Part shown: one piece after another, positions 1 through 47,052 of the stretch | Layout of the letters: every line of letters begins with the position of its first letter | How positions within the stretch are numbered: the first letter of the stretch is position 1 | The notes under the pieces: generated by a model | Told to the model about the DNA's origin: nothing | Databases searched by the model: none | Seen by the model: only the letters and a program-made list of their open reading frames with translations | Program-made: the position numbers and the translations under genes | DNA from: Escherichia coli | GTDB taxonomy: Bacteria > Pseudomonadota > Gammaproteobacteria > Enterobacterales > Enterobacteriaceae | Reading direction: 5' to 3' (one strand) | NCBI RefSeq assembly: GCF_003334305.1 | Contig: NZ_QOWS01000004.1 | Length of the DNA: 64,000 nt

Positions 1-657
1 GAGCAGACCATCACAGACCGGTTTATCCCCGCTGGCGCGGGGAACACGCAGACTATAACGAGGGTCGCACGCGGATCATCGGTTTATCCCCGCTGGCGCG
101 GGGAACACTACCAAACCGGAATCTTTCCATATAACGGCGGCGGTTTATCCCCGCTGGCGCGGGGAACACTTACTCGCCGGGGAATACGCCCCGCGCCACG
201 CCGGTTTATCCCCGCTGGCGCGGGGAACACCTTACTCATTCAGAACGCTGCATGAAATATGCCGGTTTATCCCCGCTGGCGCGGGGAACACACCCTCCAG
301 ATCTCGGGTGTCGGTAATGAAAACGGTTTATCCCCGCTGGCGCGGGGAACACGAGCGCGTGCCGTGCCTGGGTTCATATGATGGCGGTTTATCCCCGCTG
401 GCGCGGGGAACACGTGGTTGTTTAGGCGGGATTTGTTGCGTAAGTCGGTTTATCCCCGCTGGCGCGGGGAACACCCATTTCATCATGAACGGCGGAAATA
501 TCGTGGCGGTTTATCCCCGCTGGCGCGGGGAACACTCGTTTCAGTTCAGTTAGATTTATATCCAGCGCGGTTTATCCCCGCTGGCGCGGGGAACACGCTG
601 GCCGTCGTTTTTACTCAGTAACCGCCAACGGTTTATCCCCGCTGGCGCGGGGAACAC
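1..657 (-). CRISPR. Type I-E CRISPR array, truncated by the window edge; 11 repeats and 10 complete 32-nt spacers
   Basis: 29-nt repeat CGGTTTATCCCCGCTGGCGCGGGGAACAC (plus-strand reading) at 19,80,141,202,263,324,385,446,507,568,629 with a constant 61-nt period; leader and cas2 lie at the 3' side on plus, so the array is transcribed on the minus strand. Confidence 0.97.
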
Positions 658-753: not shown

Positions 754-1963
<1,210 letters not shown>

Positions 1964-1967
<4 letters not shown>

Positions 1968-2614
1968 GCCTCTGCTCCGGGTTTGATCAGCATCAGACCA
2001 CAGCCGAACGCCCGGCTTTTGCCATACCCCTGACTGAGACGTTGCAGAAATAACCCGGGATCGGTGACCGTAAGCATCCCCGTATAATCCACGCTACTGA
2101 ACTGGATCAGTTGCCGGGTGTTTTCCCGCCGGGGTTGTTGTTGTCGGTAGGCATCAACCGAGGTATCCAGTAGTGTAAAACCACTTCTTTCCCCCTGCGC
2201 TGCCAGCCAGTCCAGCGCCGCCTGTTGTTGATGCAACCAGATATCACGCCCTTCCGCCTGCCCCTTCACCTGCCGTTTCGCCTCCATCAGCAGATCGTGG
2301 CGCTTGCCCGCTTTACAGATTGTTGGATTCGCCCGCAGGTTGAAACAAAGAGATTGTCCGGTACGCAGCTCGGACACAAATGGTCGGCATTCGATGGTGA
2401 AAGTTTCACTTTCCGCCGGGCGTGCCTGCGAGAGGACAAAAAAGCGAAACGCGCCCTGGAGTTCTTCCCGACGATAAAGAAATTGCCTTTCTTTGCCGCC
2501 AGGGAAGAGATCCCACAGCCACTGATGCATCACATATTCACCGCGATCCACCAGATGCAGCAACTGCGCAGGCGAAAGCTGGCCGGTATGTAAGGTTATT
2601 CTTGAGAGGTACAT
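1964..2614 (-). CDS. casE: Cas6e (CasE/Cse3) pre-crRNA endoribonuclease
   Basis: Start chosen at internal ATG giving MYLSRITLHTG... (216 aa) with AAGGAGG Shine-Dalgarno just upstream; conserved FNLRANP and GCGLM motifs; the annotated ORF extension to 2752 overlaps cas5 and is rejected. Confidence 0.85.
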
Positions 2615-3342
2615 GGTTCCTCCTTGCTGAGCCACGGCCCCTGATTGACGGTGCGTTCCCCAAACAGCCACTGCTGACGATTTAAAGGAACATCCCGGCG
2701 GCGTAATATTTTGCTCGCGACCAGGCCGTCGTGTTTCCCTTCCCACCAGCATTCATCCTGAAGTTTTGGGAGTGAGACTTTCAGTTTATGGAAATGATCC
2801 TGATACTGTTGGTATGCATTACATAAGGCATCACACGCGTTGCCTTCGAGCAGTAACGGCGCAAGAGGTAATGCCAGCGGATGACTTTTTCGCCCCAGAT
2901 AAAGCGGAAAAACTGGATGGCGTAAACCGTCCTGCAACTGTTCGAGGCTGTAAGGCGCATCGGCTGTTGTTGCCACCGCCACCATCCACCAGGCATCGGT
3001 GTAGTAGTCGCGCCGGGAGATAATCGCGCTCAAAAGCTCAGGGTCGCTCAACTCTTCGCGACGGCTGAAATAACGTGCTTTACGCACCTCTTTTGGCATC
3101 TGGACCGTGTGATAATCCCGTGCCCAGCGCGGGTTACGGCTGGCGCAAACCACCAGTGAATAGTGGCGATTAAACGCGTTTAAGCGTTCGGTATCATCAC
3201 GCCGAATCCCTACCCCGGCAGCCAGTAGCCCCAGCAATGCTGAGCGCGAAGGAAGTTCATGGGTATGACGAACTTCACCTGGAGCATCGCCCCCCCAGGA
3301 CGCCATCGGCCCATGAAGCTGAAAAATCAGATATTGGCTCAT
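2596..3342 (-). CDS. casD: Cas5e (CasD) Cascade subunit
   Basis: 248-aa ORF MSQYLIFQLHGPMASWG...; position between cas7 and cas6e. Confidence 0.9.
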   Translation of the reverse strand: MSQYLIFQLHGPMASWGGDAPGEVRHTHELPSRSALLGLLAAGVGIRRDDTERLNAFNRHYSLVVCASRNPRWARDYHTVQMPKEVRKARYFSRREELSDPELLSAIISRRDYYTDAWWMVAVATTADAPYSLEQLQDGLRHPVFPLYLGRKSHPLALPLAPLLLEGNACDALCNAYQQYQDHFHKLKVSLPKLQDECWWEGKHDGLVASKILRRRDVPLNRQQWLFGERTVNQGPWLSKEEPCTSQE

Positions 3343-3352
3343 AAGCCGCCCC

Positions 3353-4408
3353 TTACGCGCAGATAAAGTCCAGCACGTCCTTCATGCTTCCCTGTTTGTT
3401 CATCACGTCAAAACTTGCGCATTCGGTCTTCTGTTCGTAGACCGTATTCATGTTTTCGCGAAGCGTTGTAATACGCTGCACCGCCACATCTAACTGACGT
3501 GTGCCATTAATGGGTTCATAGAAAGCCGCCGCCAGAGAGCGTGGTTGATCGGTGCCTTTTTCTGCCAGCGCCCAGGAGGCGTAGGCACGGCTGGCAAAGC
3601 TGTTCTGTTTGCCGGTTGGGGAGACTTTAAGTGCGGCTTCCGTAAAGGCACGTATGGTCTGATTAGCTAACGCTTCGTCACCGCCAAGGTTTTCGACCAG
3701 CAGATCTTTATCAATGCAGATATAGGTGTAGAACAGTGCAGAACCGAATCCGGTTTCACCAAGATGCCCGGCACCGGCATCTTCAGAAGCCTGGCGCAAA
3801 TCATCAACGGCGGTGAAAAAATCATCTTCGACAATCGTTTCACTGACACCAAATGCGTGCGCTACCTGGCAGGCGGCTTCAACATTAAACTCGGGTTTAT
3901 TCGCCAGCATACGACCAGACATGGCAATATCTACCGCCATACGGTCTTTGCGTAACAACGCGAGATCTTCCTCTTTTGGCGCGCGCTTTTCTTCTGCAAG
4001 CTGATGGGCCAGCGCTTTTACGGCGTCAAATTCTGCCGGGCTGATATGGACTAACTGTTCAGTTTCGGCGTTAGTGAGCGGATCTTTTGGTTTTTTGTCG
4101 TTTTTAGCTTTCCCAAGATAATCTGCAATTTTTGCCGCCCATTCGATGGCTTTTTTCTCTTCGATTCCTTTCTCAATCAGGATAGTTGCCGCCTCACGCG
4201 CAATACGCCCACTGCGAATACCAATATGGCCCGCCAGTGCCTGTTCAAAAAGTGCAGAAGTGCGCCACGCACGTTTCAGACTTTTCGAGGAAACGCGCAG
4301 ACGCGTTGCTCCACCCAGCACCACAGTTTTTGGCGCACCGGTATCATCACGGTTAAGGTTGGCAGCAGGGTAAGCGGTTAACAAATGAAGCTGAATAAAT
4401 GTTGTCAT
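3353..4408 (-). CDS. casC: Cas7e (CasC) Cascade backbone subunit
   Basis: 351-aa ORF MTTFIQLHLLTAYPAANLNRDDTG... matches the Cas7e N-terminal signature. Confidence 0.92.
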   Translation of the reverse strand: MTTFIQLHLLTAYPAANLNRDDTGAPKTVVLGGATRLRVSSKSLKRAWRTSALFEQALAGHIGIRSGRIAREAATILIEKGIEEKKAIEWAAKIADYLGKAKNDKKPKDPLTNAETEQLVHISPAEFDAVKALAHQLAEEKRAPKEEDLALLRKDRMAVDIAMSGRMLANKPEFNVEAACQVAHAFGVSETIVEDDFFTAVDDLRQASEDAGAGHLGETGFGSALFYTYICIDKDLLVENLGGDEALANQTIRAFTEAALKVSPTGKQNSFASRAYASWALAEKGTDQPRSLAAAFYEPINGTRQLDVAVQRITTLRENMNTVYEQKTECASFDVMNKQGSMKDVLDFICA

Positions 4409-4419
4409 GAGATAGTCCT

Positions 4420-4956
4420 TTATTGATTTTGTTCGTTATCGGCGTCGCCAGCCTGGTAATATTCCAGCGCCCAGCGGATACGGATAAATTCGGTTGGCCG
4501 CTGCTGGCGGCGGTGATGATTGAGCAGGTCGTCGCTCTCCTGGCACCAACGGAAGACCCCCTCTGCCAGAGAGTCAAGATTGACGGAACCGTTTAATAAT
4601 CTGACTGCGCGGCGTAACTGGCGCAGTAATTCATCCGGTGTTTTTACTGCCGACAGACGAGTAAAACGCCCCTTTGACATTACCGCCGCCAGCTGCGCGG
4701 CAAAAGGCTGCCGTTCATCAATAGCTTTAACATTGGCGCTAACTGCGGCTATCAGCGCCAGTGCGGTGATACGCCACTCAGGTTCATCCTGCCACTTTAT
4801 TTGTCTGTTCTTCAGAAACAGGCGAAATCCATCCGTCAGACAAACATCATTAACCGTCGTACTACGCCGCAGACTGGCACGTTCGCCACGTTTCTCCTGC
4901 AATTCCTCGTGCCATTTGCGCAGCGTGGCTTTGTGCTCCTCTTTTACAATACTCAT
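4420..4956 (-). CDS. casB: Cse2 (CasB) Cascade small subunit
   Basis: 178-aa ORF between cse1 and cas7; start overlaps cse1 stop. Confidence 0.85.
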   Translation of the reverse strand: MSIVKEEHKATLRKWHEELQEKRGERASLRRSTTVNDVCLTDGFRLFLKNRQIKWQDEPEWRITALALIAAVSANVKAIDERQPFAAQLAAVMSKGRFTRLSAVKTPDELLRQLRRAVRLLNGSVNLDSLAEGVFRWCQESDDLLNHHRRQQRPTEFIRIRWALEYYQAGDADNEQNQ

Positions 4957-6515
4957 TCAGCAGCCTCCTGCTTTTTCTCCCTGGCGGCTTTAGCACTTTG
5001 CTTCTCCGCCGATGTTGTGAAATATTTCTTGCGCGCGGTCATAACGCGTTTCAAATCAACAGGCTCATATGGATTGGTGAATACACGCTCGTCAAAATCC
5101 TGACGCGCGAATAACCAAATTTCCTTTTGCCATTTGCCGAGTAATTCGTCCGCATCCTGACCTTCTTCAATTTGGCGCACTAACCTCAGGAAGCGATGCT
5201 GAGTTTTGTTCCAGAAGTCGATATCCACAAAACTGAAATCACCCCGTGCACCTTTTGGATCGGAGAACCACGCTTCTTTCAATGCACTTCGTAACAGACT
5301 TAGAATCCGTGAAGCCGTTTGCGCAGCCAGACGCAGTTTCGGTATCTGGCCTTCTTTTTTCTTGAGCAGCAGCGGGAAATGGTGTTCGTACCAACAGCGC
5401 GCTTTCATGTTGTCGAAATCATAGCCAAATCCCCACAGGCCTACTTTTGCCTGTTTCAGACTGCTGGCATTAAAGAGTTTCACCACCAGCGCGGGAAGTT
5501 CCGTATTGTTTTCTGATTTACCCGTTTCGATAAGGCCTAACCAGTCGCGCCAGATTAAACCGCCCGGTTGTGGTTTGACCGAGTAAAACTCGCCCCCCTC
5601 TTTAAGTGGTATACGGTAAGGCGTTAAGGGATGCTGCCACATGGCATAATTCGCACCGTAATTTTTGGTCGTCATCAGGCTCAGGAGCGCGTCGCTCTGT
5701 TCACCGCAAATATCGCAGTTGCCGACTGTCGTGGTATTAAAATCAATACGAATACGGCGCGGCATTCCCCAGTAAGCCTGGAGTTTATTGACCTGATCAT
5801 GGGTTACCACCGCACCGGCCAGTTCGCTGGTTCGCGTCGGGCCAAGCCAGGGGAAAACCAGATCGTCAAATTTTTTGGGTAGCGGTAAGTCGGCTTCATC
5901 CTGCGGCATCACATTGGGCCACAGTTTGCGCCACAAGGGCGTTTGTTGATTGCCTTGATATTCCTGTAATTCAATCAGAGTGGTCATCGGCCCACCGCCG
6001 CGCAAACCGGTGCGATAGCCTTTGCCGCCTGATGGCGCATTTAACTGTAGGGAGAACAGAGCTAACGCGGAACAATGAGGGCATACGTGTTCAGTCACGC
6101 CACGCTTAATAAAGTGGTCTTTATTAAACTTCGTTGTTTGAGCGCCGGGAATCTCAGGCAGTAGCGAAGCGACCTGAACTTTATCTCCCTTGAGCGCCTC
6201 GAAATCCTGCATAAATGAAGGGGAATCTGCCCCAAACTGGAAAGCGTGTTCTAAGGACAGCAATGCTTCCCGTAGCTTTTCAGCCTCCAGTCCGTCTTCC
6301 CAGATATCATCCCAACGACCGTGATTTTTGGGCGCGAAGCTGGTTTGTAGTAGCCCCAGCAAAAACTGCCAGGCCGCACCCTGGAGATCTGCCCGCGGCG
6401 CAGCGATATCGACAACATTTTCATCAGCCAGATCGACTGGTGCCAGCTTGCCTGTCGTTCCGTCTTTAAAACGAACAGGCAACCACGGGGTTGTCAGAAG
6501 TGAAAACGAGTTCAT
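4953..6515 (-). CDS. casA: Cse1 (CasA) Cascade large subunit
   Basis: Start taken at ATG giving MNSFSLLTTPWLPVRF... (520 aa), preceded by GAGAGG; the longer ORF to 6584 lacks an RBS; length and order fit Cse1. Confidence 0.85.
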   Translation of the reverse strand: MNSFSLLTTPWLPVRFKDGTTGKLAPVDLADENVVDIAAPRADLQGAAWQFLLGLLQTSFAPKNHGRWDDIWEDGLEAEKLREALLSLEHAFQFGADSPSFMQDFEALKGDKVQVASLLPEIPGAQTTKFNKDHFIKRGVTEHVCPHCSALALFSLQLNAPSGGKGYRTGLRGGGPMTTLIELQEYQGNQQTPLWRKLWPNVMPQDEADLPLPKKFDDLVFPWLGPTRTSELAGAVVTHDQVNKLQAYWGMPRRIRIDFNTTTVGNCDICGEQSDALLSLMTTKNYGANYAMWQHPLTPYRIPLKEGGEFYSVKPQPGGLIWRDWLGLIETGKSENNTELPALVVKLFNASSLKQAKVGLWGFGYDFDNMKARCWYEHHFPLLLKKKEGQIPKLRLAAQTASRILSLLRSALKEAWFSDPKGARGDFSFVDIDFWNKTQHRFLRLVRQIEEGQDADELLGKWQKEIWLFARQDFDERVFTNPYEPVDLKRVMTARKKYFTTSAEKQSAKAAREKKQEAAE

Positions 6516-6612
6516 ACGCATCCTCTCGTAAAAAAGACCATCCCAGGTCGGTTGTCCATCTTTCCATCCTTTTCGGTGTATCAACTATTCAGAGAGTCCT
6601 GTCGCAGACATC

Positions 6613-9312
6613 TCAACCAACCTTGCCAATCAATCCTTCCGTAGCCGAATACCCGCAACTTTCGTCATCGTTGACTAAAATCACGTTTGCCATCTCCGGA
6701 TCTTGTCGCTGTTCAATGCACCACAGCCTGAACGCCTCTCCCTCCAGTAAAGAAAACTCATCCCGATGTTTTTTCCACCAGCTTCGGCGCACTCTGACAA
6801 CGCTCATTTCCCATGCGTGAGCACCGGTGGCATAAGGCTTCACCACACCGTCAATACAGGTAGCCAGCCACAGGGAAACAGACTCCTCAGCCAGACGTGT
6901 CGACAGTTTTTCCGGGAGGTAATCGTTGATATTGGCGGCATAGCCGGGCCTGAAGTTCAGCACAAACTTTTTAGCCATTGCGCGATCGCAGTAATATTTG
7001 CCCACTTGCTCCTGCTCGCTGCGGGCAAATCCTTCCGGCATTACCACGTCCTCACCGTAGACGGATTCAATAAGAAGCCGGGCTGCGTATGGCATCTGAA
7101 TAGCACCTTGCTCACGCAGCACACGCTGCGTCAGCCAGATTCGCCCATGATCGGGATAGACAAATGCACTGTTACGCATGGCACTGCCAAACCATTCGTC
7201 GCCAGGAGAGTCGTCCCAGACGGGAGCCAGAATCAGCAATTCAGGGGGGGAACGCTCGTCCTTTCCGTCACGCTTTAACTGACCATTAATATCGCGGATA
7301 TGCCGCTGTAATCGTCCTGCTCGCTGAATCAGCAAATCAACAGGGGCCAGGTCGGAGATCATTTCGTCCAGGTCAATATCCACGCTTTGCTCAATTACTT
7401 GTGTACAAACAATGACTTGCGACGCTCTCTGTAAACTACAATATTTACCAAAGCGTGCCAGTGTCTCCGTTTCAATTCGCTGGCGATCGCTAAAAGCAAA
7501 GCGGCTATGAAAAAGTGAAAGGCTGGAAGCAGGAATGACGCCGCGGGCAAGCAGCTGACGATGAACCTTAATAGCGTCATCGACAGAATTCCGGATCCAG
7601 GCGATGCATTTCCCCTGACTTACCGCCGATTCGATACGCGCAATACACTCTTGTTCACTATGAAGCCAACCCACGCTGACGCTACGCTCAACGTCTTTGC
7701 GCGTCGCTACCCGGTGTGAGTTCACATCGGATTTCGTGACATGCGTCAGCCAGGGGTAATCATCCTTTTCCAGGAACGGAGCTTCTTGCAGGCCCTCTGT
7801 ACCCCGCGCAAAGGCAGCGACGAGTTTGTCGCGCTGCTGTTGAGATAACGTGGCAGAAAGCAAAATAACGCTGTTTCCGCCACGCGCCTGCCGCTCGATC
7901 AACCCTTCAAGAATGCACGACATGTAAGCGTCACAGGCGTGGATCTCATCAGCCAGCAGGATTTTGTTACTCAGCCCCAGAAGCCGCAGATTATTATGTT
8001 TGAACGGCATCACCGCCATCATCGCCTGATCCAGCGTGCCGACGCCAATTTCAGCCAGCAACGCCTTCTTGTTACTGTCGGCAAACCAGGCCGCACATCC
8101 CTGACTGAACGTTTGTTCATCCGGTTCTTCTGACCCGACTAAATCACCAGACCAGAGTGATTCATTAAAGCGGTCCATTAATGTGCGGGCACTATGTGCC
8201 AGCACCAGGCTGGGGCGGGATTCTGGCGAATAGAAAGCAAGCCAGGTTTTGACCAGCCGATCGTACATGGCATTGGCCGTTGCCATTGTTGGCAGACCAA
8301 AAAACAGCCCCTGAGCTTTCCCCGCAGCTATCAACCTGTGCGCCAGGATAAGCGCCGCTTCTGTTTTACCTGCGCCAGTCACATCTTCCAGAATAAATAA
8401 CTGCGGTCCTTGCTGGCTGATATCCAGATCCAGCACCTTTTGCTGTAACGGTGTCGGATTCTCAATAAAAGGAAACAGCGTATTAATTCCGTTGAAAGGC
8501 GCGACTTTTGCTTTTAGAGGAAAGACGGTTAAGGCGTTTTGAGCCTGAATTAAAGTTTTCTGCCAGTAACCTTTAATATCCATTGGGTGTGCGACGCGTG
8601 GAAAAAATCGCGTTGACGAACCCGTCCAGTCTGCGAGCACGACGGTTGCAGAGATATACCAGGAAAGGTGTTTTATAAGTTCAATGCCCTCATCATCATC
8701 CCAGAATGCGGGGATCTCTATGAGCGGAAACAGTGGTTTGATTTCAAGGAGAAAATCTCGTGCTGCAGCTTTGTCTTCAGGCAGAAAATTATCCAATTCA
8801 TCCATACGATCAGGGGGCCGACCATGATGCCCTGTCGTCACGGGCATCCACATTTCTATCACTCGCCTAAGTTTGCGCGGAGAGAGCGAAGATGAAGGAA
8901 GTAACTCCTGACATTCACTTAAATAATGATTCCACAACCAGTAGCCCAGCGTTGAATGAGAGATTTTTTCGTAATTTTTTCTGGCACCTTCCTGAATCTT
9001 GAGTTCAGGGGGCAGGTAAAGTTGTTGAAAAGAGCGGGCAAATTTTCCAATATCGTGCCAGCACAGCAACCAGGCGAAAAATTGAGCCGCCTGTTCCTTG
9101 TCAGAAATCCCTAATTGACGAAAATAATCAGCCAGCCCGAAGCAATTTCTTTTAACCATTAAATAGCCCATCGCGGCTACATCCAGCGAATGCCAGCAAA
9201 GAAGGTGATAGTCGTCGCCCCCGTCTTTCTCGCCGCGTCGGGTTTTTCCCCAGAAATCAAAAAAAGTCACAATATTTTTATCCTTCAGTAAACTTAAAGG
9301 ATATTTACGCAT
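6613..9312 (-). CDS. cas3: Cas3 HD nuclease / SF2 helicase
   Basis: 899-aa ORF; HD-type N-terminus (LLCWHSLDVAAMGYL), helicase motifs (DVTGAGKTEAA, DEIHACD); heads the cas operon. Confidence 0.95.
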   Translation of the reverse strand: MRKYPLSLLKDKNIVTFFDFWGKTRRGEKDGGDDYHLLCWHSLDVAAMGYLMVKRNCFGLADYFRQLGISDKEQAAQFFAWLLCWHDIGKFARSFQQLYLPPELKIQEGARKNYEKISHSTLGYWLWNHYLSECQELLPSSSLSPRKLRRVIEMWMPVTTGHHGRPPDRMDELDNFLPEDKAAARDFLLEIKPLFPLIEIPAFWDDDEGIELIKHLSWYISATVVLADWTGSSTRFFPRVAHPMDIKGYWQKTLIQAQNALTVFPLKAKVAPFNGINTLFPFIENPTPLQQKVLDLDISQQGPQLFILEDVTGAGKTEAALILAHRLIAAGKAQGLFFGLPTMATANAMYDRLVKTWLAFYSPESRPSLVLAHSARTLMDRFNESLWSGDLVGSEEPDEQTFSQGCAAWFADSNKKALLAEIGVGTLDQAMMAVMPFKHNNLRLLGLSNKILLADEIHACDAYMSCILEGLIERQARGGNSVILLSATLSQQQRDKLVAAFARGTEGLQEAPFLEKDDYPWLTHVTKSDVNSHRVATRKDVERSVSVGWLHSEQECIARIESAVSQGKCIAWIRNSVDDAIKVHRQLLARGVIPASSLSLFHSRFAFSDRQRIETETLARFGKYCSLQRASQVIVCTQVIEQSVDIDLDEMISDLAPVDLLIQRAGRLQRHIRDINGQLKRDGKDERSPPELLILAPVWDDSPGDEWFGSAMRNSAFVYPDHGRIWLTQRVLREQGAIQMPYAARLLIESVYGEDVVMPEGFARSEQEQVGKYYCDRAMAKKFVLNFRPGYAANINDYLPEKLSTRLAEESVSLWLATCIDGVVKPYATGAHAWEMSVVRVRRSWWKKHRDEFSLLEGEAFRLWCIEQRQDPEMANVILVNDDESCGYSATEGLIGKVG

Positions 9313-9506: not shown

Positions 9507-9659
9507 CTACTTCTTCGATTCGTAAGCGAGAACTGCCTTAAACTCCATACCACGTTCTCTGATACTCAACTCACACAACGAGTCGCCTACCATCAGCGTG
9601 AATCCCAGTACTGTAAAACACAGCACTATGATTGCCACAAGGGCATATTTTGTCAGCAT
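9507..9659 (-). CDS. Hok/Gef-family type I toxin (50 aa)
   Basis: Hand translation of minus strand: [50 protein letters not shown]; hydrophobic N-terminal helix plus the Hok signature SLCE-x-E-x-A-x-AYES; GGGAGG SD 6 nt upstream; same position as sokX in K-12 as recalled; not in the supplied ORF track (under 60 aa). Confidence 0.8.
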
Positions 9660-9757
9660 GTCTTGCCTCCCTGCAAAGAAGAGACTAACATTCGAATTGT
9701 TTGGGTTCGAACGTAAGCCTCAGGTTGATAGAAATATCGCCTGGGGCTTTTGTCCAT
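9653..9757 (-). CDS. mok-like upstream ORF (34 aa), translationally coupled to hok
   Basis: ATG preceded by GAGG; [34 protein letters not shown]; its TGA stop overlaps hok codons 1-2 (ACATGCTGA), the arrangement typical of hok/mok loci. Confidence 0.45.
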
Positions 9758-9865
9758 CTGGAACCTCGCGAATGCTTAACGCCAGACAGCCTCAAGCACC
9801 CGACGCCATTCTATACCTGATAATTCTTCCAGCGGCGTTCACGTTTAAAATCAGGAATACTGCTC

Positions 9866-24240: not shown

Positions 24241-25719
24241 ATGTCGAAAAAATACATCATAGGGATTGATGGCGGAAGTCAGAGCACAAAAGTGGTGATG
24301 TACGATCTGGAAGGTAACGTGGTTTGCGAAGGCAAAGGCTTATTACAGCCGATGCACACGCCAGATGCCGATACTGCAGAACATCCTGACGACGATTTAT
24401 GGGCATCATTATGTTTTGCAGGTCACGATTTGATGAGCCAGTTTGCCGGGAATAAAGAAGATATTGTTGGCATCGGCCTGGGCTCCATCCGTTGCTGCCG
24501 TGCGTTATTGAAAGCCGACGGCACGCCAGCTGCGCCGTTGATTAGCTGGCAGGATGCACGCGTTACACGCCCTTACGAACATACGAATCCTGACGTGGCG
24601 TATGTCACCTCTTTTTCGGGTTATCTGACGCATCGCTTAACCGGCGAGTTTAAAGACAATATCGCCAACTATTTTGGTCAGTGGCCGGTGGATTATAAGA
24701 GCTGGGCATGGAGCGAAGATGCTGCGGTAATGGATAAGTTTAATATCCCCCGTCATATGCTGTTTGATGTGCAAATGCCTGGCACCGTCCTCGGACATAT
24801 CACACCACAAGCCGCACTGGCGACACATTTCCCGGCAGGACTGCCGGTTGTTTGTACCACCAGTGATAAACCGGTAGAAGCTCTGGGGGCCGGATTACTG
24901 GATGATGAAACTGCGGTAATTTCTCTTGGCACTTACATCGCATTGATGATGAACGGCAAAGCACTGCCGAAAGATCCGGTGGCGTACTGGCCGATTATGT
25001 CTTCTATTCCGCAAACATTGCTGTATGAAGGTTACGGTATTCGCAAAGGTATGTGGACGGTGAGCTGGCTGCGTGACATGTTAGGCGAGTCGTTAATTCA
25101 GGATGCCAGGGCGCAGGATCTTTCACCGGAAGATTTACTCAACAAGAAAGCCTCTAGTGTGCCACCTGGCTGTCATGGGCTGATGACGGTGCTGGACTGG
25201 CTGACCAATCCGTGGGAACCGTACAAACGCGGGATTATGATCGGCTTTGATTCCAGCATGGATTACGCATGGATATATCGTTCGATATTGGAAAGTGTGG
25301 CGCTAACGCTGAAGAACAATTACGACAATATGTGTAATGAAATGAATCACTTTGCGAAGCATGTGATCATTACTGGCGGCGGTTCGAACAGCGATCTGTT
25401 TATGCAAATTTTTGCCGACGTGTTCAACCTTCCGGCACGCCGTAACGCCATTAACGGTTGTGCAAGTCTGGGAGCAGCGATTAATACAGCGGTAGGTCTG
25501 GGGCTATACCCGGATTACGCAACGGCTGTTGATAAGATGGTTCGCGTGAAAGATATCTTTATACCGATTGAGAGCAATGCCAAACGCTACGACGCGATGA
25601 ATAAAGGCATTTTCAAAGACCTAACCAAACATACTGATGTGATCCTGAAAAAATCGTATGAAGTGATGCATGGGGAATTGGGGAATGTGGATTCGATCCA
25701 GAGCTGGTCGAATGCGTAA
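24241..25719 (+). CDS. ygcE: FGGY-family carbohydrate kinase
   Basis: 492-aa ORF MSKKYIIGIDGGSQSTKVVMYDLEGN... (sugar-kinase N-terminal motif), ...ITGGGSNSDLFMQIFADV. Confidence 0.88.
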   Translation: MSKKYIIGIDGGSQSTKVVMYDLEGNVVCEGKGLLQPMHTPDADTAEHPDDDLWASLCFAGHDLMSQFAGNKEDIVGIGLGSIRCCRALLKADGTPAAPLISWQDARVTRPYEHTNPDVAYVTSFSGYLTHRLTGEFKDNIANYFGQWPVDYKSWAWSEDAAVMDKFNIPRHMLFDVQMPGTVLGHITPQAALATHFPAGLPVVCTTSDKPVEALGAGLLDDETAVISLGTYIALMMNGKALPKDPVAYWPIMSSIPQTLLYEGYGIRKGMWTVSWLRDMLGESLIQDARAQDLSPEDLLNKKASSVPPGCHGLMTVLDWLTNPWEPYKRGIMIGFDSSMDYAWIYRSILESVALTLKNNYDNMCNEMNHFAKHVIITGGGSNSDLFMQIFADVFNLPARRNAINGCASLGAAINTAVGLGLYPDYATAVDKMVRVKDIFIPIESNAKRYDAMNKGIFKDLTKHTDVILKKSYEVMHGELGNVDSIQSWSNA

Positions 25720-25727
25720 GTGAGGAA

Positions 25728-25751
25728 GGCCGGGCGGGAAACTGCCCGGCC
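25728..25751 (+). terminator. GC-rich hairpin directly after the ygcE stop (possible terminator, no T-tract)
   Basis: GGCCGGGC-GGGAAACT-GCCCGGCC. Confidence 0.35.
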
Positions 25752-25765
25752 TGAACATACCTGAA

Positions 25766-25903
25766 TGGTTATCCCCGCTGACGCGGGGAACATAAGTTCG
25801 ACAACTTAAAAAATGATAACAAGTCCGGTTTATCCCCGCTGATGCAGGGAACATAATAAAAACTTTAACTAGTTCGGTTTATCCCTGTTTTTACAAGGAA
25901 TAT
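25766..25903 (-). CRISPR. Degenerate CRISPR remnant (three decayed I-E repeats)
   Basis: TGGTTATCCCCGCTGACGCGGGGAACAT, CGGTTTATCCCCGCTGATGCAGGGAACAT, CGGTTTATCCCTGTTTTTACAAGGAATAT; first interval 32 nt, second 20 nt. Confidence 0.8.
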
Positions 25904-26357
25904 TAACTACACTCGATGTCTTTAGAATAAAAGACAATACGAATCGCACTTTATCAATTTTCACTTAAAGTATGAACTGGATATCTTTATTCATAAGAAC
26001 TATTCATCAACAGCGTATAGAGGCGGTTATGTAAAACCACTCATTAGCCTCAAAACAAAGACAAACTTCCAGATTTATTACTTAACCAATGAATAACAAG
26101 CTTAAAAAATATACTGTTATTCTAAAGAAAAAATTAACAGGCATTAATTCAATATTAAAAAAATAATAGATTAAAATTTCTTAACGATTTAAGAATCATA
26201 CAAATAACACTTTGATTAAATTTAATTTTTTGTATCGATAATTGTGAACCTCTCTGGCATGGAGAACTATTTTGAACATGAGGTGTTACGTGGATATGTT
26301 GCTTATTACAAGTACTGCTAATATAAAAACTTGAGAAAGAGATAACGGGTTATATGG

Positions 26358-26935
26358 TGGTTTATCCCCGCTGGCGCGGGGAGCTCAACATCGGAAACGG
26401 CTTCGCGGCGGCGGCGTCCGGTTTATCCCCGCTGGCGCGGGGAGCTCTACGTGAAGAATATTTGCAACACCCGCAAGAACGGTTTATCCCCGCTGGCGCG
26501 GGGAGCTCGGCATAGCCAGGCTGATCCGGCGACGGCCTTACGGTTTATCCCCGCTGGCGCGGGGAACACTGTTCGGCGGGGCGGTAGTACCACTGTTTTT
26601 TCGGTTTATCCCCGCTGGCGCGGGGAACACATCAACATGCAGCGCGAACGGCTGCCCCTCGCCGGTTTATCCCCGCTGGCGCGGGGAACACTCTTATTCA
26701 GTCCCCTTTTCCATCTGCTGTGGCGGTTTATCCCCGCTGGCGCGGGGAACACGTAAATTGCGACGTCCTGCGCCAGTAATTCAACGGTTTATCCCCGCTG
26801 GCGCGGGGAACACGATGCGGCAGCGGCGGCGGGAAGTTATCGCGGCGGTTTATCCCCGCTGGCGCGGGGAACACCTTTCAATATAGTCAGAAAAGTCTTT
26901 TGGCAACGGTTTATCCCCGCTGGCGCGGGGAACAC
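26358..26935 (-). CRISPR. Type I-E CRISPR array 2: 10 repeats, 9 spacers of 32 nt
   Basis: Repeats at 26358,26419,26480,26541,26602,26663,26724,26785,26846,26907; the three leader-distal repeats end GAGCTC rather than GAACAC; leader at the 3' side on plus, so minus-strand transcription. Confidence 0.97.
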
Positions 26936-27130
26936 TCTAAACATAACCTATTATTAATTAATGATTTTTTAAGCCAGTCACAATCTACCAACTTTATAGT
27001 ATCACACAAACAACACATCCATTATGTTAAAGAGCACTTAATCCATTGATTAAAAAGGTAAATATTTAAAATAACTCTATACAAACTAAAATCTACCAAA
27101 CTTTACCGCAATAATTTTCACTCCAGCGAA
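26936..27130 (-). promoter_or_regulatory. Leader of CRISPR array 2
   Basis: AT-rich; shares CTAA-CATA and ACAATCTACCAACT motifs with the array-1 leader; a second AAATCTACCAAACT copy near 27090. Confidence 0.75.
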
Positions 27131-27274
27131 AAATTAATGCCACAGAATTTGTAGAGAATGCTAATGATTAGCCCTGGATGGGTAAAATGGAGGAGTTTTC
27201 AGAGGCGACAAACAATATAAATGAGTAGAAGTCTTTACAGGTTCCACCCATTTATAACGCTTATAAATGTTTAA

Positions 27275-27946
27275 TCAGGCAATATTTAGATATTTATGTG
27301 TTTGCATCGACAAACGCCAATTACGCGCAATGCAGGTTTCAATGCACAAACGTGTGGCATCATCCTTTTGGCTAATCGGCTGCAGTGCAATGACTCGCGG
27401 TTTATCATCGGTCAGCGTTGCCAGTAGTTCATCCAGTGCTTCAATATCACGTACGCGCCCCACTGGATGCTTGATTTCGTTGGCTCGCTCCAGTGCCTGT
27501 GACAACACGTCATAGCCGCCGCGCATGTTCAGCTTTGGCGATACGGTAACCCAGGTATTCGGTGTGCAGCGTACTTCATGAGTTCCACTGGTTTCGATCT
27601 GGCAGCTAAAACCGTTCTTTTCGAGCAGGTCAGTCAGTGGCAGCAAATCATGAATGCAAGGCTCACCACCCGTAATCACCACATGCCGCGCGGTATATCC
27701 CTGCCGACCAATGACAGCCAGCAAATCTTCACTGCTCGCCGCCCCCCACTTATCACTCTCTTTGGTCTTCGCCAGAATGCTGAAAAGGGAGACTTCCCGA
27801 TCCTCAAGCTTTTCCCAGGTGTGTTTGGTGTCGCACCAGGCACAGCCAACCGGGCATCCCTGTAAACGAATAAAAATGGCGGGGACGCCGGTAAAGTAAC
27901 CCTCACCTTGCAGGGTCTGGAACATCTCGTTAATCGGGTACTGCAT
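27275..27946 (-). CDS. queE: 7-carboxy-7-deazaguanine synthase (radical SAM)
   Basis: 223-aa ORF MQYPINEMFQTLQGEGYFTGVPAIFIRLQGCPVGCAWCDTKHTW (CxxxCxxC radical SAM motif). Confidence 0.95.
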   Translation of the reverse strand: MQYPINEMFQTLQGEGYFTGVPAIFIRLQGCPVGCAWCDTKHTWEKLEDREVSLFSILAKTKESDKWGAASSEDLLAVIGRQGYTARHVVITGGEPCIHDLLPLTDLLEKNGFSCQIETSGTHEVRCTPNTWVTVSPKLNMRGGYDVLSQALERANEIKHPVGRVRDIEALDELLATLTDDKPRVIALQPISQKDDATRLCIETCIARNWRLSMQTHKYLNIA

Positions 27947-46641: not shown

Positions 46642-46685
46642 AAAGCAACCTCAATAAGAAAAACTGCCGCGAAGGATAGCAGGAA

Positions 46686-47052
46686 TAAAAAAAGGGAGCA
46701 CTGTATTCACAGCGCTCCCGGTTCGTTTCGCAGCATTCCAGCTACTTTTGTTGCTCCCTGCTCATCCTTGACAACTTTTCCTCTGGCCTTGCGGCCAATC
46801 GTTCATCCTGAACTATTGCTTCCTGCTCACACCACCCCGATGTGATACTTCATCCTGAAGTGTCCCTGGCCTTCCTGACCCACCGAATCATCCTGACCGG
46901 TTCTCATTCTCCATCCTGGAGGTGTCCTTTAACGCGTCCTGCGTCATCCTCTTCGCTTCATCCAGAAGCCTTTCCCTGAAACACCATCCTGGTGTGTCCT
47001 GCAGAAGTGTCATCATCCTGATGTTCACTTCGTTGTCTGACTCCCTGTCGAC
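46686..47052 (-). ncRNA. csrB: CsrB small RNA (CsrA-sequestering)
   Basis: Minus strand begins GTCGACAGGGAGTCAGACAACGAAG and carries many CAGGAUG/AGGAUG GGA motifs (plus-strand catcctg repeats); ends with hairpin GGGAGCGCTGTGAATACAGTGCTCCC + U8 at 46686-46725. Confidence 0.95.

Follow-up and report, generated by a model that had tools for sequence, protein, structure and literature searches.

The region between ygcE and queE (ygcF) in Escherichia coli strain A7 is the E. coli CRISPR-II locus, and it very probably consists of a remnant array, CRISPR2.2, followed by a second array, CRISPR2.3, in which strata of repeat spelling have built up through growth at the leader end and have been thinned by the later deletion of units. 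As described here, the locus is the textbook locus of E. coli K-12, and the description itself contributes nothing beyond it; published work already covers the relic array, the gap of 0.5 kb and the polymorphisms of the repeats, all of which serve in CRISPR typing. The only surprise is the conservation of the relic across E. coli, which goes well past the neutral level.

The two arrays are named as in Diez-Villasenor et al. 2010, a scheme that PMC3903273 and PMC4489801 also follow; CRISPR2.2 and CRISPR2.3 lie between ygcE and ygcF, 0.5 kb apart (PMC3903273), and CRISPR2.2 is defined by three repeats and two invariable spacers (PMC4489801). The window matches E. coli A7 at 100%. The flanking of CRISPR-II by ygcE and queE is confirmed by the RefSeq annotation of both A7 and K-12, and a CRISPR array is annotated at this locus in A7 (Table 1). 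A complete type I-E operon (cas2e, cas1e, cas6e, cas5e, cas7e, casB, casA and cas3) is annotated at 754-9312 of the window, that is, of the whole 64-kb stretch of A7 DNA that was analysed, which also contains the CRISPR2.1 array. A7 and the published CRISPR-II locus are alike in their flanking genes, in the three degenerate repeats and two invariable spacers, in the spacing of about 0.5 kb and in the leader on the queE side. In fact, the relic and the gap of K-12 MG1655 are 100% identical to those of A7, base for base, and the sole difference at this locus is in the strain-specific content of CRISPR2.3, with 9 spacers in A7 as against 6 in K-12. CRISPR2.3 is the array that goes by the name of CRISPR II in E. 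coli K-12, and the CRISPR2.2 remnant is also called CRISPR III in papers on K-12. The CRISPR-II locus is absent outside Escherichia: in Citrobacter, Enterobacter, Klebsiella, Raoultella, Cedecea and Yokenella, ygcE adjoins queE with no CRISPR between them. The inverted repeat that lies beside ygcE resembles a terminator hairpin that lacks a T-run, and the terminator scan gave no call for it.

Table 1. Features of the CRISPR-II locus of E. coli A7, in positions of the window.
Feature	Position	Strand	Remarks
ygcE, FGGY-family carbohydrate kinase	24241..25719	+	Left boundary gene; RefSeq annotation of A7
GC-rich inverted repeat GGCCGGGCGGGAAACTGCCCGGCC	25728..25751	.	Directly past the ygcE stop; read from the sequence
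Relic repeat R1 TGGTTATCCCCGCTGACGCGGGGAACAT	25766..25793	-	28 nt; terminal repeat of CRISPR2.2, abuts ygcE
Relic spacer S1	25794..25825	-	32 nt; invariable
Relic repeat R2	25826..25854	-	4 substitutions
Relic spacer S2	25855..25874	-	20 nt
Relic repeat R3	25875..25903	-	Leader-proximal repeat of CRISPR2.2; 10 substitutions
First 115 nt of the gap	25904..26018	-	Leader position for CRISPR2.2; strongly conserved within E. coli
Remaining gap	26019..26357	.	AT-rich; changes at about the synonymous rate, with indels
Oldest CRISPR2.3 repeats, GAGCTC (transcribed GAGCUC)	26358..26508	-	Three repeats, with two spacers AACATCGG... and TACGTGAAG...
Third shared old spacer GGCATAGCC...	26509-26540	-	Directly past 26508, within the younger part
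Younger CRISPR2.3	26509..26935	-	Seven GAACAC (transcribed GUGUUC) repeats and spacers
Leader of CRISPR2.3, TCTAAACATAACC...	26936..27274	-	69.6% AT; adjoins queE
queE (ygcF)	27275..27946	-	Right boundary gene; RefSeq annotation

The three eroded type I-E repeats that an earlier note on this DNA had placed at 25766-25903 are indeed present there. R1 departs from the consensus CGGTTTATCCCCGCTGGCGCGGGGAACAC by one deletion and three substitutions, which leave the hairpin intact and the part for the 5' handle degenerate, R2 retains an intact 5' handle and a hairpin that is preserved by a G-U wobble, and R3 keeps its last eight transcribed nucleotides, ATAAACCG, unchanged (8/8), together with a weak hairpin that is maintained by two double changes. 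Both R2 and R3 begin with C, and the outermost repeats, R1 and the repeat at 26358, begin with T, in agreement with a PAM-derived last nucleotide of the repeat (PMC3338789); the relic repeats also share an old spelling of their own, ...GAACAT on the plus strand. The second spacer, S2, resembles the final 17 nt of S1 (12/17 matches). R1 is an ‘anchor’ repeat that is common to all Escherichia lineages examined, and it is found also in E. albertii, E. whittamii and strain MOD1-EC7003. In strain E69, which lacks R2 and S2 and so carries the minimal form R3-S1-R1, R3 is identical at 29/29 positions.

Of the 16 two-array E. coli loci that were parsed (the window included), 15 share the whole block R1-S1-R2-S2-R3 without a difference, and the remaining one, that of O157:H7, departs from it by a single base, in R1. 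Relic and gap together are found in 4,124 of 5,426 complete E. coli genomes (~76%) at a query coverage of at least 80%. Since the same relic and gap recur in thousands of independent assemblies, and without a difference in K-12 MG1655, an assembly artefact, which had been raised as a concern, is ruled out, and the GAGCTC block of CRISPR2.3 with its same spacers is likewise present in hundreds of assemblies. The proposal that an older array had been inactivated also stands, CRISPR2.2 being an old remnant without further spacer uptake whose two ‘spacers’ recur unchanged in over 4,000 genomes (PMC4489801). A search for the S1 protospacer in IMG/VR gave a single match, which is the E. coli chromosomal locus itself, and a search of phage genomes gave chance-level matches only.

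The word ‘fossil’, which the earlier note had used of this region, is misleading, for the relic and the next 115 nt are far more conserved than neighbouring synonymous sites. Among 14 strains, one of the 138 positions of the relic and two of the next 115 are segregating, compared with 25/150 third codon positions in ygcE and 17/150 in queE, which amounts to about 12-fold fewer polymorphic sites than in the flanks. The region directly to the left (25720-25765) is polymorphic, with segregating sites at 7 of 46 positions. Furthermore, the 253-nt island formed by the relic and these 115 nt has an identity of 99% or more in 3,993 of 4,165 genomes, as against 2,370 of 4,159 for the adjacent 253 nt, and in the comparison of E69 with A7 the differences amount to 3/89 in the relic and 2/63 at gap positions 45-107, versus 20.7% at ygcE third positions. 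The signal recurs at three levels: the 14 strains, the set of over 4,000 genomes and the comparison with a second Escherichia lineage (E69). The relic is frozen rather than decaying, with a conservation beyond neutral expectation and sharp edges. A reading that takes the relic with its leader for a fossil in neutral decay, and in which the seven proximal repeats of CRISPR2.3 owe their uniformity to gene conversion or to replacement from another array, is improbable; its first half is contradicted both by the segregating sites of the relic and the next 115 nt and by the genome counts for the island.

If this conservation reflects function, then K-12 would carry a cr-like RNA gene, or a site of regulation, that has gone unstudied, and what had been a nuisance, a ‘degenerate array’, would turn into a question that can be worked on. 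One form that such a function could take, which we regard as distinctly doubtful, is that CRISPR2.2 together with the ~115 nt upstream of it (25766-26018, in the minus-strand sense) forms a non-coding gene that is kept by selection, a candidate mini-CRISPR of the CreR/CreA kind. One or two fixed-spacer RNAs would be made, composed of the R2 handle, S1 and the R1 hairpin and of the R3 handle, S2 and the R2 hairpin, and, once taken up by Cascade, they would work through partial complementarity like CreA and CreR, in a regulatory or other non-immune role. The systems used for comparison, the Salmonella type I-E creR and a predicted E. coli cas3-cas8e mini-array (bioRxiv 10.1101/2023.03.10.532045; PMC10120712), are like CRISPR2.2 in having degenerate repeats around a fixed spacer, in keeping the handle in the first repeat and the hairpin in the last, and in a conservation well above neutral. 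In A7, R3, which is transcribed first, keeps its 8-nt 5' handle exactly and not the rest, and R1, the last repeat, keeps its hairpin exactly and not the handle, a pattern of degeneracy that has been reported for creR (bioRxiv 10.1101/2023.03.10.532045). Also in favor of such a gene are the sharp edges of the island, both within E. coli and in comparison with E69, the survival of the minimal form in E69, the length of S2 (20 nt, equal to 32 minus two 6-nt Cas7 steps), and the presence of the full Cascade/Cas6e set. A protein-coding reading of the island was considered and rejected, as no frame has a synonymous-type change between A7 and E69, and the lack of a reading frame with coding-type conservation is likewise in keeping with a non-coding gene.

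However, the known creR and creA elements are situated within the cas operon or next to it (bioRxiv 10.1101/2023.03.10.532045; PMC10120712), whereas the island is ~16 kb and some fifteen genes away from cas3, and CRISPR2.2 has no PAM-flanked partial target of S1 or S2 (seed of at least 9/10; PAM AAG, ATG, AGG or GAG) within the 64-kb window, the cas operon and its promoters included. No promoter was called above chance, the promoter and terminator scan of 25600-27400 having returned nothing above shuffles, and a search of 25600-27300 against Rfam (E up to 1) gave nothing beyond one chance-level match. The island is also dispensable, since E. albertii, E. whittamii and some E. coli are without it, R1 aside, and its low diversity could in principle be due to something else, for instance a binding site or conversion among haplotypes.

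Beyond R3 there is indeed an AT-rich stretch before array 2, given in the earlier note as about 450 nt; it measures 454 nt (25904-26357) and is 72.0% AT, compared with 49.3% across the whole window. The array polarity is as first read, with the plus strand the reverse complement of the transcribed repeat and the leader on the queE side. This gap abuts the leader-proximal repeat R3, opposite the degenerate terminal repeat R1, and it occupies the place expected of a leader because of the polarity that is given by the T/C first-base pattern and by the R1 terminal repeat that is shared across species. The description of the gap as a decayed leader agrees with its AT-richness and its position and has weak support from its sequence.

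In register and without gaps, the first 100 nt past R3 match the leader of CRISPR2.3 at 46/100 positions, against a background of 30 +/- 5, which is the same ungapped identity as that between the functional leaders 2.1 and 2.3. The probability of such a match is roughly 0.005 after allowing for 13 offsets, and among roughly 128,000 windows on the two strands of the 64-kb stretch, ~3 unrelated ones reach the value. As to signals for promoter activity and integration (IHF site, upstream Cas1-Cas2 motif), the promoter scan did not exceed chance in the gap, and the ACAATCTACCAAC motif, which is common to leaders 2.1 and 2.3, is only partly kept there (13/20 in a 20-nt segment). A free local alignment of the gap with these two leaders (z 1.8-1.9) and an end-gap-free global alignment of its first 120 nt were not significant, and an nhmmer search of the gap of A7 and of E69 with a six-leader profile reached 0.7 bits at best, under many shuffles. 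The gap probably began as a leader. An extra eroded repeat within the gap was also considered and was rejected, since the best candidate (16/29 at 26241-26269) lies at the margin of what shuffles give and other strains do not conserve it.

It is rather unlikely, in comparison, that the gap never was a leader and is unrelated AT-rich DNA, either inserted or left within one ancestral ‘CRISPR2.2-3’ array in such a way that R1-R3 were stranded. The failure of the profile and local-alignment tests to detect leader homology is consistent with such an origin, as is the neutral rate of change, with indels, over most of the gap (26019-26357). In E. albertii, E. whittamii and some E. coli (E700025, GmF052), moreover, R1 is joined straight to the array or to leader 2.3 with no gap, and as this single-array state is widespread it could be ancestral. 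The same state is easily made, however, by recombination of R1 with a CRISPR2.3 repeat, a route that is fitted by the hybrid R1 of the gapless taxa, in which the left half is that of R1 and the right end is the ...CTC or ...CCC of the resident array. R3 and the first CRISPR2.3 repeat are both full length, so that no repeat was cut by an insertion, and the derived ...GAACAT that the relic repeats share is the mark that past growth from a first repeat of its own would leave in an array; the in-register alignment with leader 2.3 likewise speaks against an unrelated origin. Gap homologs were absent from 50,697 phage records, the only matches in 72,556 plasmid records (PLSDB) were three E. coli records of 4.8-4.9 Mb that are evidently chromosomes, and for the remaining gap (26019..26357) no homolog was found away from the CRISPR-II locus.

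Array 2, CRISPR2.3, is made up of ten 29-nt repeats with a 61-nt period (26358-26935) and 32-nt spacers; the repeat search that located it gave 21 matches in the window versus 0 in 100 shuffles. As was first noticed, the three leader-distal repeats (26358, 26419 and 26480) end in GAGCTC and the seven proximal ones (26541 to 26935) in GAACAC. Compared with the type I-E (‘type 2’) repeat consensus GWGTTCCCCGCGCCAGCGGGGATAAACCG (PMC3338789), the seven are exact and the three differ at transcribed positions 2 and 4. The A/T polymorphism at position 2 corresponds to the published W (PMC3338789; PMC3384332; PMC2886076), and degenerate terminal repeats, variation of the last nucleotide, polarised growth and shared distal spacers are all known from published type I-E arrays. 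In the literature searched, no paper prints the spelling with C at position 4 (GAGCTC), yet it is carried by ~500 complete genomes. Over its first 60 nt (from 26936) the leader does not differ from that of K-12, and it is 94% identical to that of E69, versus 79% identity at ygcE third codon positions.

In E. coli the leader-proximal repeat always serves as the template for a new one (PMC3384332), and the oldest spacers are distal and shared, with a degenerate terminal repeat (PMC2886076). A change in the leader-proximal repeat is consequently inherited by all younger units, and old units retain the old spelling, so that in an array such as CRISPR2.3, which grows only at the leader end, the spellings form strata. 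Of the two arrays, both on the minus strand, CRISPR2.2 is a remnant without spacer uptake and CRISPR2.3 the working one. In the mechanism that we propose, CRISPR2.3 would extend only at its leader end by copying the leader-proximal repeat, such that its oldest units would carry GAGCUC or GAGUUC and the units added once the first repeat had become GUGUUC would carry GUGUUC; recombination between repeats would then have removed internal units and left strain-specific subsets, A7 having presumably lost the GACAGAACGG unit that K-12 retains.

This order of events, which we infer, is consistent with a comparison of 18 parsed E. coli ygcE-queE loci (the window included), in which repeats spelled GAGCTC or GAACTC are confined to the distal end of GAACAC arrays and are accompanied by the same old spacers. 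The distal GAGCTC block was found in 505 genomes. The fullest order of the old spacers, AACATC / GACAGA / TACGTG / GGCATA, is that of 2013C-3277 and CI5, and A7, K-12, E2863, ETEC-2265 and 2014C-3051 carry subsets of it that are consistent with unit deletions; among the old units, A7 has kept three with GAGCTC and K-12 one with GAACTC. The earlier identification of the GAGCTC repeats as the oldest stratum of array 2 is thus upheld, and the spellings, together with the shared old spacers, make up a clean worked example of first-repeat copying followed by unit deletions as a readable array history. No protospacer was found for the old spacer TACGTGAAG....

The strata are not perfectly ordered. 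In the fullest arrays the sequence is non-monotonic (GAGCTC, GAACTC, GAGCTC, GAGCTC, GAACAC), so that at least one event of in-place mutation or conversion is needed besides simple propagation. The passage from GAGCUC to GUGUUC takes two changes, and no intermediate turned up where one would be expected. At one site, three alleles (G, T and A) of the terminal repeat occur. The second half of the fossil reading is the homogenisation or replacement of the proximal repeats, which had also been put forward in the earlier note. The GAGCTC / GAACTC / GAGCTC order in some strains does indicate that individual repeats have been affected by more than simple propagation, and a donor for conversion exists in A7, where all CRISPR2.1 repeats are GAACAC. 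Conversion is not expected, however, to stop exactly at the boundary between ancient shared and strain-specific spacers, yet this boundary holds in every strain, and copying from repeat 1 is experimentally established and alone explains the uniformity (PMC3384332). With the old units shared by ~500 genomes, polarised copying suffices and homogenisation is unnecessary.

The suggestion that base pairing in the stem is altered in the GAGCTC repeats proved to be wrong. The Cas6e hairpin occupies repeat positions 5-11 and 16-22 (transcribed orientation), and since the two bases that distinguish GAGCUC from GUGUUC (positions 2 and 4) lie outside it, the stem is unaltered; the GUGUUC, GAGCUC and GAGUUC forms have the same predicted 7-bp stem and tetraloop, at -15.1 kcal/mol each. 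The GAGCUC repeats are presumably still processed. The T with which the terminal repeat at 26358 begins, also recorded in the earlier note, is confirmed, and it is the last transcribed nucleotide of that repeat. The last nucleotide of a repeat is PAM-derived and comes in with each spacer (PMC3338789); the T is therefore not erosion, occupying as it does a PAM-derived position in a terminal repeat that is without such a spacer.

The intergenic region between ygcE and queE consists of three eroded relic repeats (R1-R3) separated by two spacers (S1 and S2), an AT-rich gap (454 nt; 72% AT versus 49% window-wide) and array 2, in which ten repeats with a 61-nt period end (+ strand) in GAGCTC in the first three and in GAACAC in the last seven, the outermost starting with T (26358). 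The observation of the earlier note is confirmed, and the 1,601 bases tested (25700-27300) are 100% identical in E. coli strain A7 (NZ_CP028767.1). RefSeq annotates array 2 as the only CRISPR at the locus, leaving the relic unannotated. The architecture is already known: in the account of Almendros and co-workers, ygcE and ygcF flank the CRISPR-II locus, a leader adjoins CRISPR2.3 (array 2), and there is either one array (CRISPR2.2-3) or CRISPR2.2 (the relic) and CRISPR2.3 0.5 kb apart (PMC3903273). An artefact, raised earlier as a possible objection, is excluded by comparison across genomes, with the 618 nt covering relic and gap 100% identical between K-12 MG1655 and A7 and found at at least 80% coverage in 4,124 of 5,426 complete E. 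coli genomes.

Table. Features of the window and of the ygcE-queE intergenic region.
Feature	Position	Strand	Remarks
Array 1 (CRISPR2.1)	1-657		every repeat CGGTTTATCCCCGCTGGCGCGGGGAACAC
Type I-E cas operon	754-9312	minus	complete, cas2e to cas3
hok/sok-type toxin-antitoxin locus	9507-9801		Hok/Gef CDS and Rfam sok match; immediately upstream of the cas operon, with cas3 on one side and cysH on the other
ygcE	24241-25719	+	left flank of intergenic region
R1	25766-25793		28 nt
S1	25794-25825		32 nt
R2	25826-25854		
S2	25855-25874		20 nt
R3	25875-25903		
Gap	25904-26357		
Array 2 (CRISPR2.3)	26358-26935		
Array 2 leader	26936-27274		
queE/ygcF	27275-27946	-	right flank of intergenic region
CsrB RNA gene	46684-47043	minus	full-length (Rfam, 380 bits)

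Together, the relic and the first 115 nt of the gap form an island (25766-26018) in which 3 of 253 sites segregate among 14 E. coli strains, versus 10-17% at the flanks and at synonymous sites (Fisher tests against third codon positions, p = 1e-6 for the relic and 7e-5 for the 115 nt). In ygcE, 10.8% of third positions separate A7 from O157:H7 and 9.5% separate it from strain 3347558; in the rest of the gap the differences amount to 7-9%, and in the island to only 1/253 and 0/253 positions, respectively. Strain E69 (CP089930.1), a separate GTDB species representative with 92% nucleotide identity in ygcE, differs from A7 at 20.7% of ygcE third positions and 28-29% of the rest of the gap, versus 3/89 positions of the relic and 2/63 at gap positions 45-107. 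Identity to the island is at least 99% in 3,993 of the 4,165 genomes having it (96%), compared with 2,370 of 4,159 (57%) for the adjacent 253 nt, where 1,481 genomes fall below 95%.

Table. Polymorphism in 14 E. coli strains, by region.
Region	Segregating sites
ygcE third codon positions	25/150
ygcE stop to R1	7/46
Relic R1-R3	1/138
Next 115 nt of gap	2/115
Gap 26019-26240	31/222
Gap 26241-26357	12/117
Leader 2.3	30/339
queE third codon positions	17/150

Because deep haplotypes flank this near-invariant, sharp-edged island, the comparison of sequences favours constraint over a recent spread. The view of the relic as a neutrally decaying fossil is not borne out, given 1/138 segregating sites against 25/150 at ygcE third positions. 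No reading frame in the island shows coding-type conservation, and the island deserves attention in work on E. coli CRISPR regulation.

By analogy, the island might be a CreA/CreR-like mini-CRISPR, although we consider this improbable. The degeneracy pattern of the relic is that reported for CreA/CreR mini-CRISPRs, where the handle is kept in the first repeat and the hairpin in the last: R3, the first transcribed, has the 8-nt 5' handle ATAAACCG exactly and little else, apart from a weak hairpin that two double changes preserve, R2 retains the handle as well as the hairpin, and R1, the last repeat, has an exact hairpin with a degenerate handle part. The relic of E69, moreover, has the minimal R3-S1-R1 form. 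However, in the 64-kb window, cas operon included, neither S1 nor S2 has a partial match flanked by a PAM, no protospacer was found in IMG/VR or phage genomes, and about 16 kb separate the relic from the cas genes, in contrast to the creR and mini-array cases described. Within the relic (25809-25903), S2 agrees with 12 of the last 17 nt of S1, and R2 and R3 have derived bases in common, so that the third relic repeat may have arisen by tandem duplication of 49 nt instead of by spacer acquisition; both R2 and S2 are missing from E69. The length of S2 equals 32 minus 12 nt, or two Cas7 steps.

On the + strand of the window, the transcribed I-E repeat (consensus GWGTTCCCCGCGCCAGCGGGGATAAACCG; PMC3338789) appears as its reverse complement, which places the array 2 leader on the right; its first 60 nt are the same as in K-12. 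The GAGCTC repeats are therefore leader-distal, as proposed earlier, and the oldest in array 2. This outer repeat base normally derives from the PAM and comes in with each spacer (PMC3338789). A terminal repeat has no spacer beyond it and takes as its outer base whatever was there, so that the initial T does not reflect erosion; the pattern recurs in the relic, where the first base is C in R2 and R3 and T in the outermost R1. These first bases are also the best evidence for relic polarity: R1 is the terminal and R3 the leader-proximal repeat, with the gap in leader position.

In RNA spelling, the distal three repeats of A7 array 2 read GAGCUC and the proximal seven GUGUUC, while GAGUUC is found in the K-12 terminal repeat and throughout the arrays of O104:H4, O157:H7 and others. 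An altered Cas6e stem pairing in the GAGCTC repeats is not supported by modeling, since positions 2 and 4, where GAGCUC and GUGUUC differ, lie outside the predicted stem (positions 5-11 with 16-22, 4-nt loop), and the predicted structure and energy (-15.1 kcal/mol) are equal in the GUGUUC, GAGCUC, GAGUUC and terminal ...CCA forms.

The composition and position of the gap fit a decayed leader, for which the sequence evidence is thin. Free local alignment to leaders 2.1 and 2.3 gave z = 1.8-1.9, and a leader profile (nhmmer) scored no better on the gap than on shuffles. With a 2-nt shift, the first 100 nt past R3 match leader 2.3 at 46/100 positions ungapped (other offsets, 21-34; AT-rich windows of equal length from other parts of the 64 kb, 30 +/- 5), as do the functional leaders 2.1 and 2.3 with each other, and the highest-scoring segment (13/20) lies over the ACAATCTACCAAC motif common to functional leaders. 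Only about three unrelated windows out of some 128,000 (both strands of the 64 kb) reach 46, and p is about 0.005 once 13 offsets are allowed for, which is no more than suggestive. The gap has no Rfam match, no promoter-like site above chance and no homologs in phage records; in the plasmid collection PLSDB it matches only three multi-megabase E. coli records (4.8-4.9 Mb), which are evidently misplaced chromosomes. Together with an IMG/VR 'viral' contig that carries the chromosomal ygcE-CRISPR2.2 locus, these produce false 'mobile element' matches for the region. The site ATTGTGAACCTCTCTGGCATGGAGAACTA (26241-26269) matches the repeat consensus at 16/29 positions (95th percentile of shuffle maxima, 15) and may be what is left of a fourth repeat, almost erased, some two units distal to array 2; in O157:H7 and E69 it is not preserved. 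The leaders of array 1 and array 2 (compared at 658-780 and 26936-27060) both contain ACAATCTACCAAC and are otherwise strongly different, in agreement with the published cas-E variant-specific leader 2.1 and uniform leader 2.3.

In Citrobacter, Enterobacter, Klebsiella, Raoultella, Cedecea, Yokenella and others, queE directly follows ygcE with no CRISPR between them, which makes the CRISPR-II locus an Escherichia feature. R1 with its 1-nt deletion adjoins ygcE in E. albertii, E. whittamii and strain MOD1-EC7003. In these, and likewise in the E. coli strains E700025 and GmF052, an array or leader 2.3 follows R1 directly, and the inner end of R1 matches the resident array (...CTC or ...CCC) and not ...CAT. 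The E69 locus comprises R1-S1-R3, a diverged gap copy and then a small array with leader. Recombination of R1 with any CRISPR2.3 repeat would give the single-array form readily and repeatedly.

The ygcE-queE loci of 17 further E. coli strains were parsed. In their GAACAC-type arrays, GAGCTC and GAACTC repeats are confined to the distal end and always accompanied by the same ancient spacers. The fullest order (2013C-3277, CI5) is T..GAGCTC / AACATCGG.. / GAACTC / GACAGAACGG.. / GAGCTC / TACGTGAAG.. / GAGCTC / GGCATAGCC.. / GAACAC... The GACAGA unit is missing from A7, KSC9, D7 and TUM12355, the arrays of K-12 and E2863 begin T..GAACTC / GACAGA and that of 2014C-3051 T..GAGCTC / TACGTG, and ETEC-2265 keeps only AACATC and GACAGA of the old units. 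Each variant looks like the product expected of deletion by recombination between two repeats, in which the outer T would stay and the inner end of the chimeric repeat would move with the next spacer. The A7 distal block is present at at least 80% coverage in 505 genomes.

The simplest reading of the spellings is stratigraphy: old units would retain the spelling that the first repeat carried when they were made and, after this repeat turned GUGUUC, all later units would carry GUGUUC. In E. coli, the leader-proximal repeat serves as template for each new one (PMC3384332). Natural GAG and GTG repeat variants served as labels for Yosef et al., and Touchon and Rocha (PMC2886076) described arrays as growing in a polarised manner, sharing their distal spacers and ending in degenerate terminal repeats. 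Homogenisation of the proximal repeats, as put forward in the earlier note, is not required, although the GAGCTC / GAACTC / GAGCTC order is non-monotonic and the terminal repeat (26358-26386) has three alleles at one site (G, T and A: GAGCTC in A7, GATCTC in ETEC-2265, GAACTC in K-12 and E24377A), which implies at least one in-place change. Of the points in that note, the old repeat stratum and the remnant array are real, and the stem change and neutral decay are not upheld. In strain A38, three repeats have 1-nt homopolymer deletions (CCCC -> CCC or GGGG -> GGG; at 3668-4304 of the A38 sequence), which are probably sequencing errors; PGAP divides this array in two, and ygcE is truncated. The old CRISPR2.3 spacer TACGTGAAGAATATTTGCAACACCCGCAAGAA (26448-26479), for which no phage or plasmid match was found, recurs with one mismatch between GAACAC repeats in the CRISPR2.1 (iap-cas2) array of strain Res13-Lact-PER04-33 (1530-1561 of that sequence), and its protospacer seems to have been captured twice.
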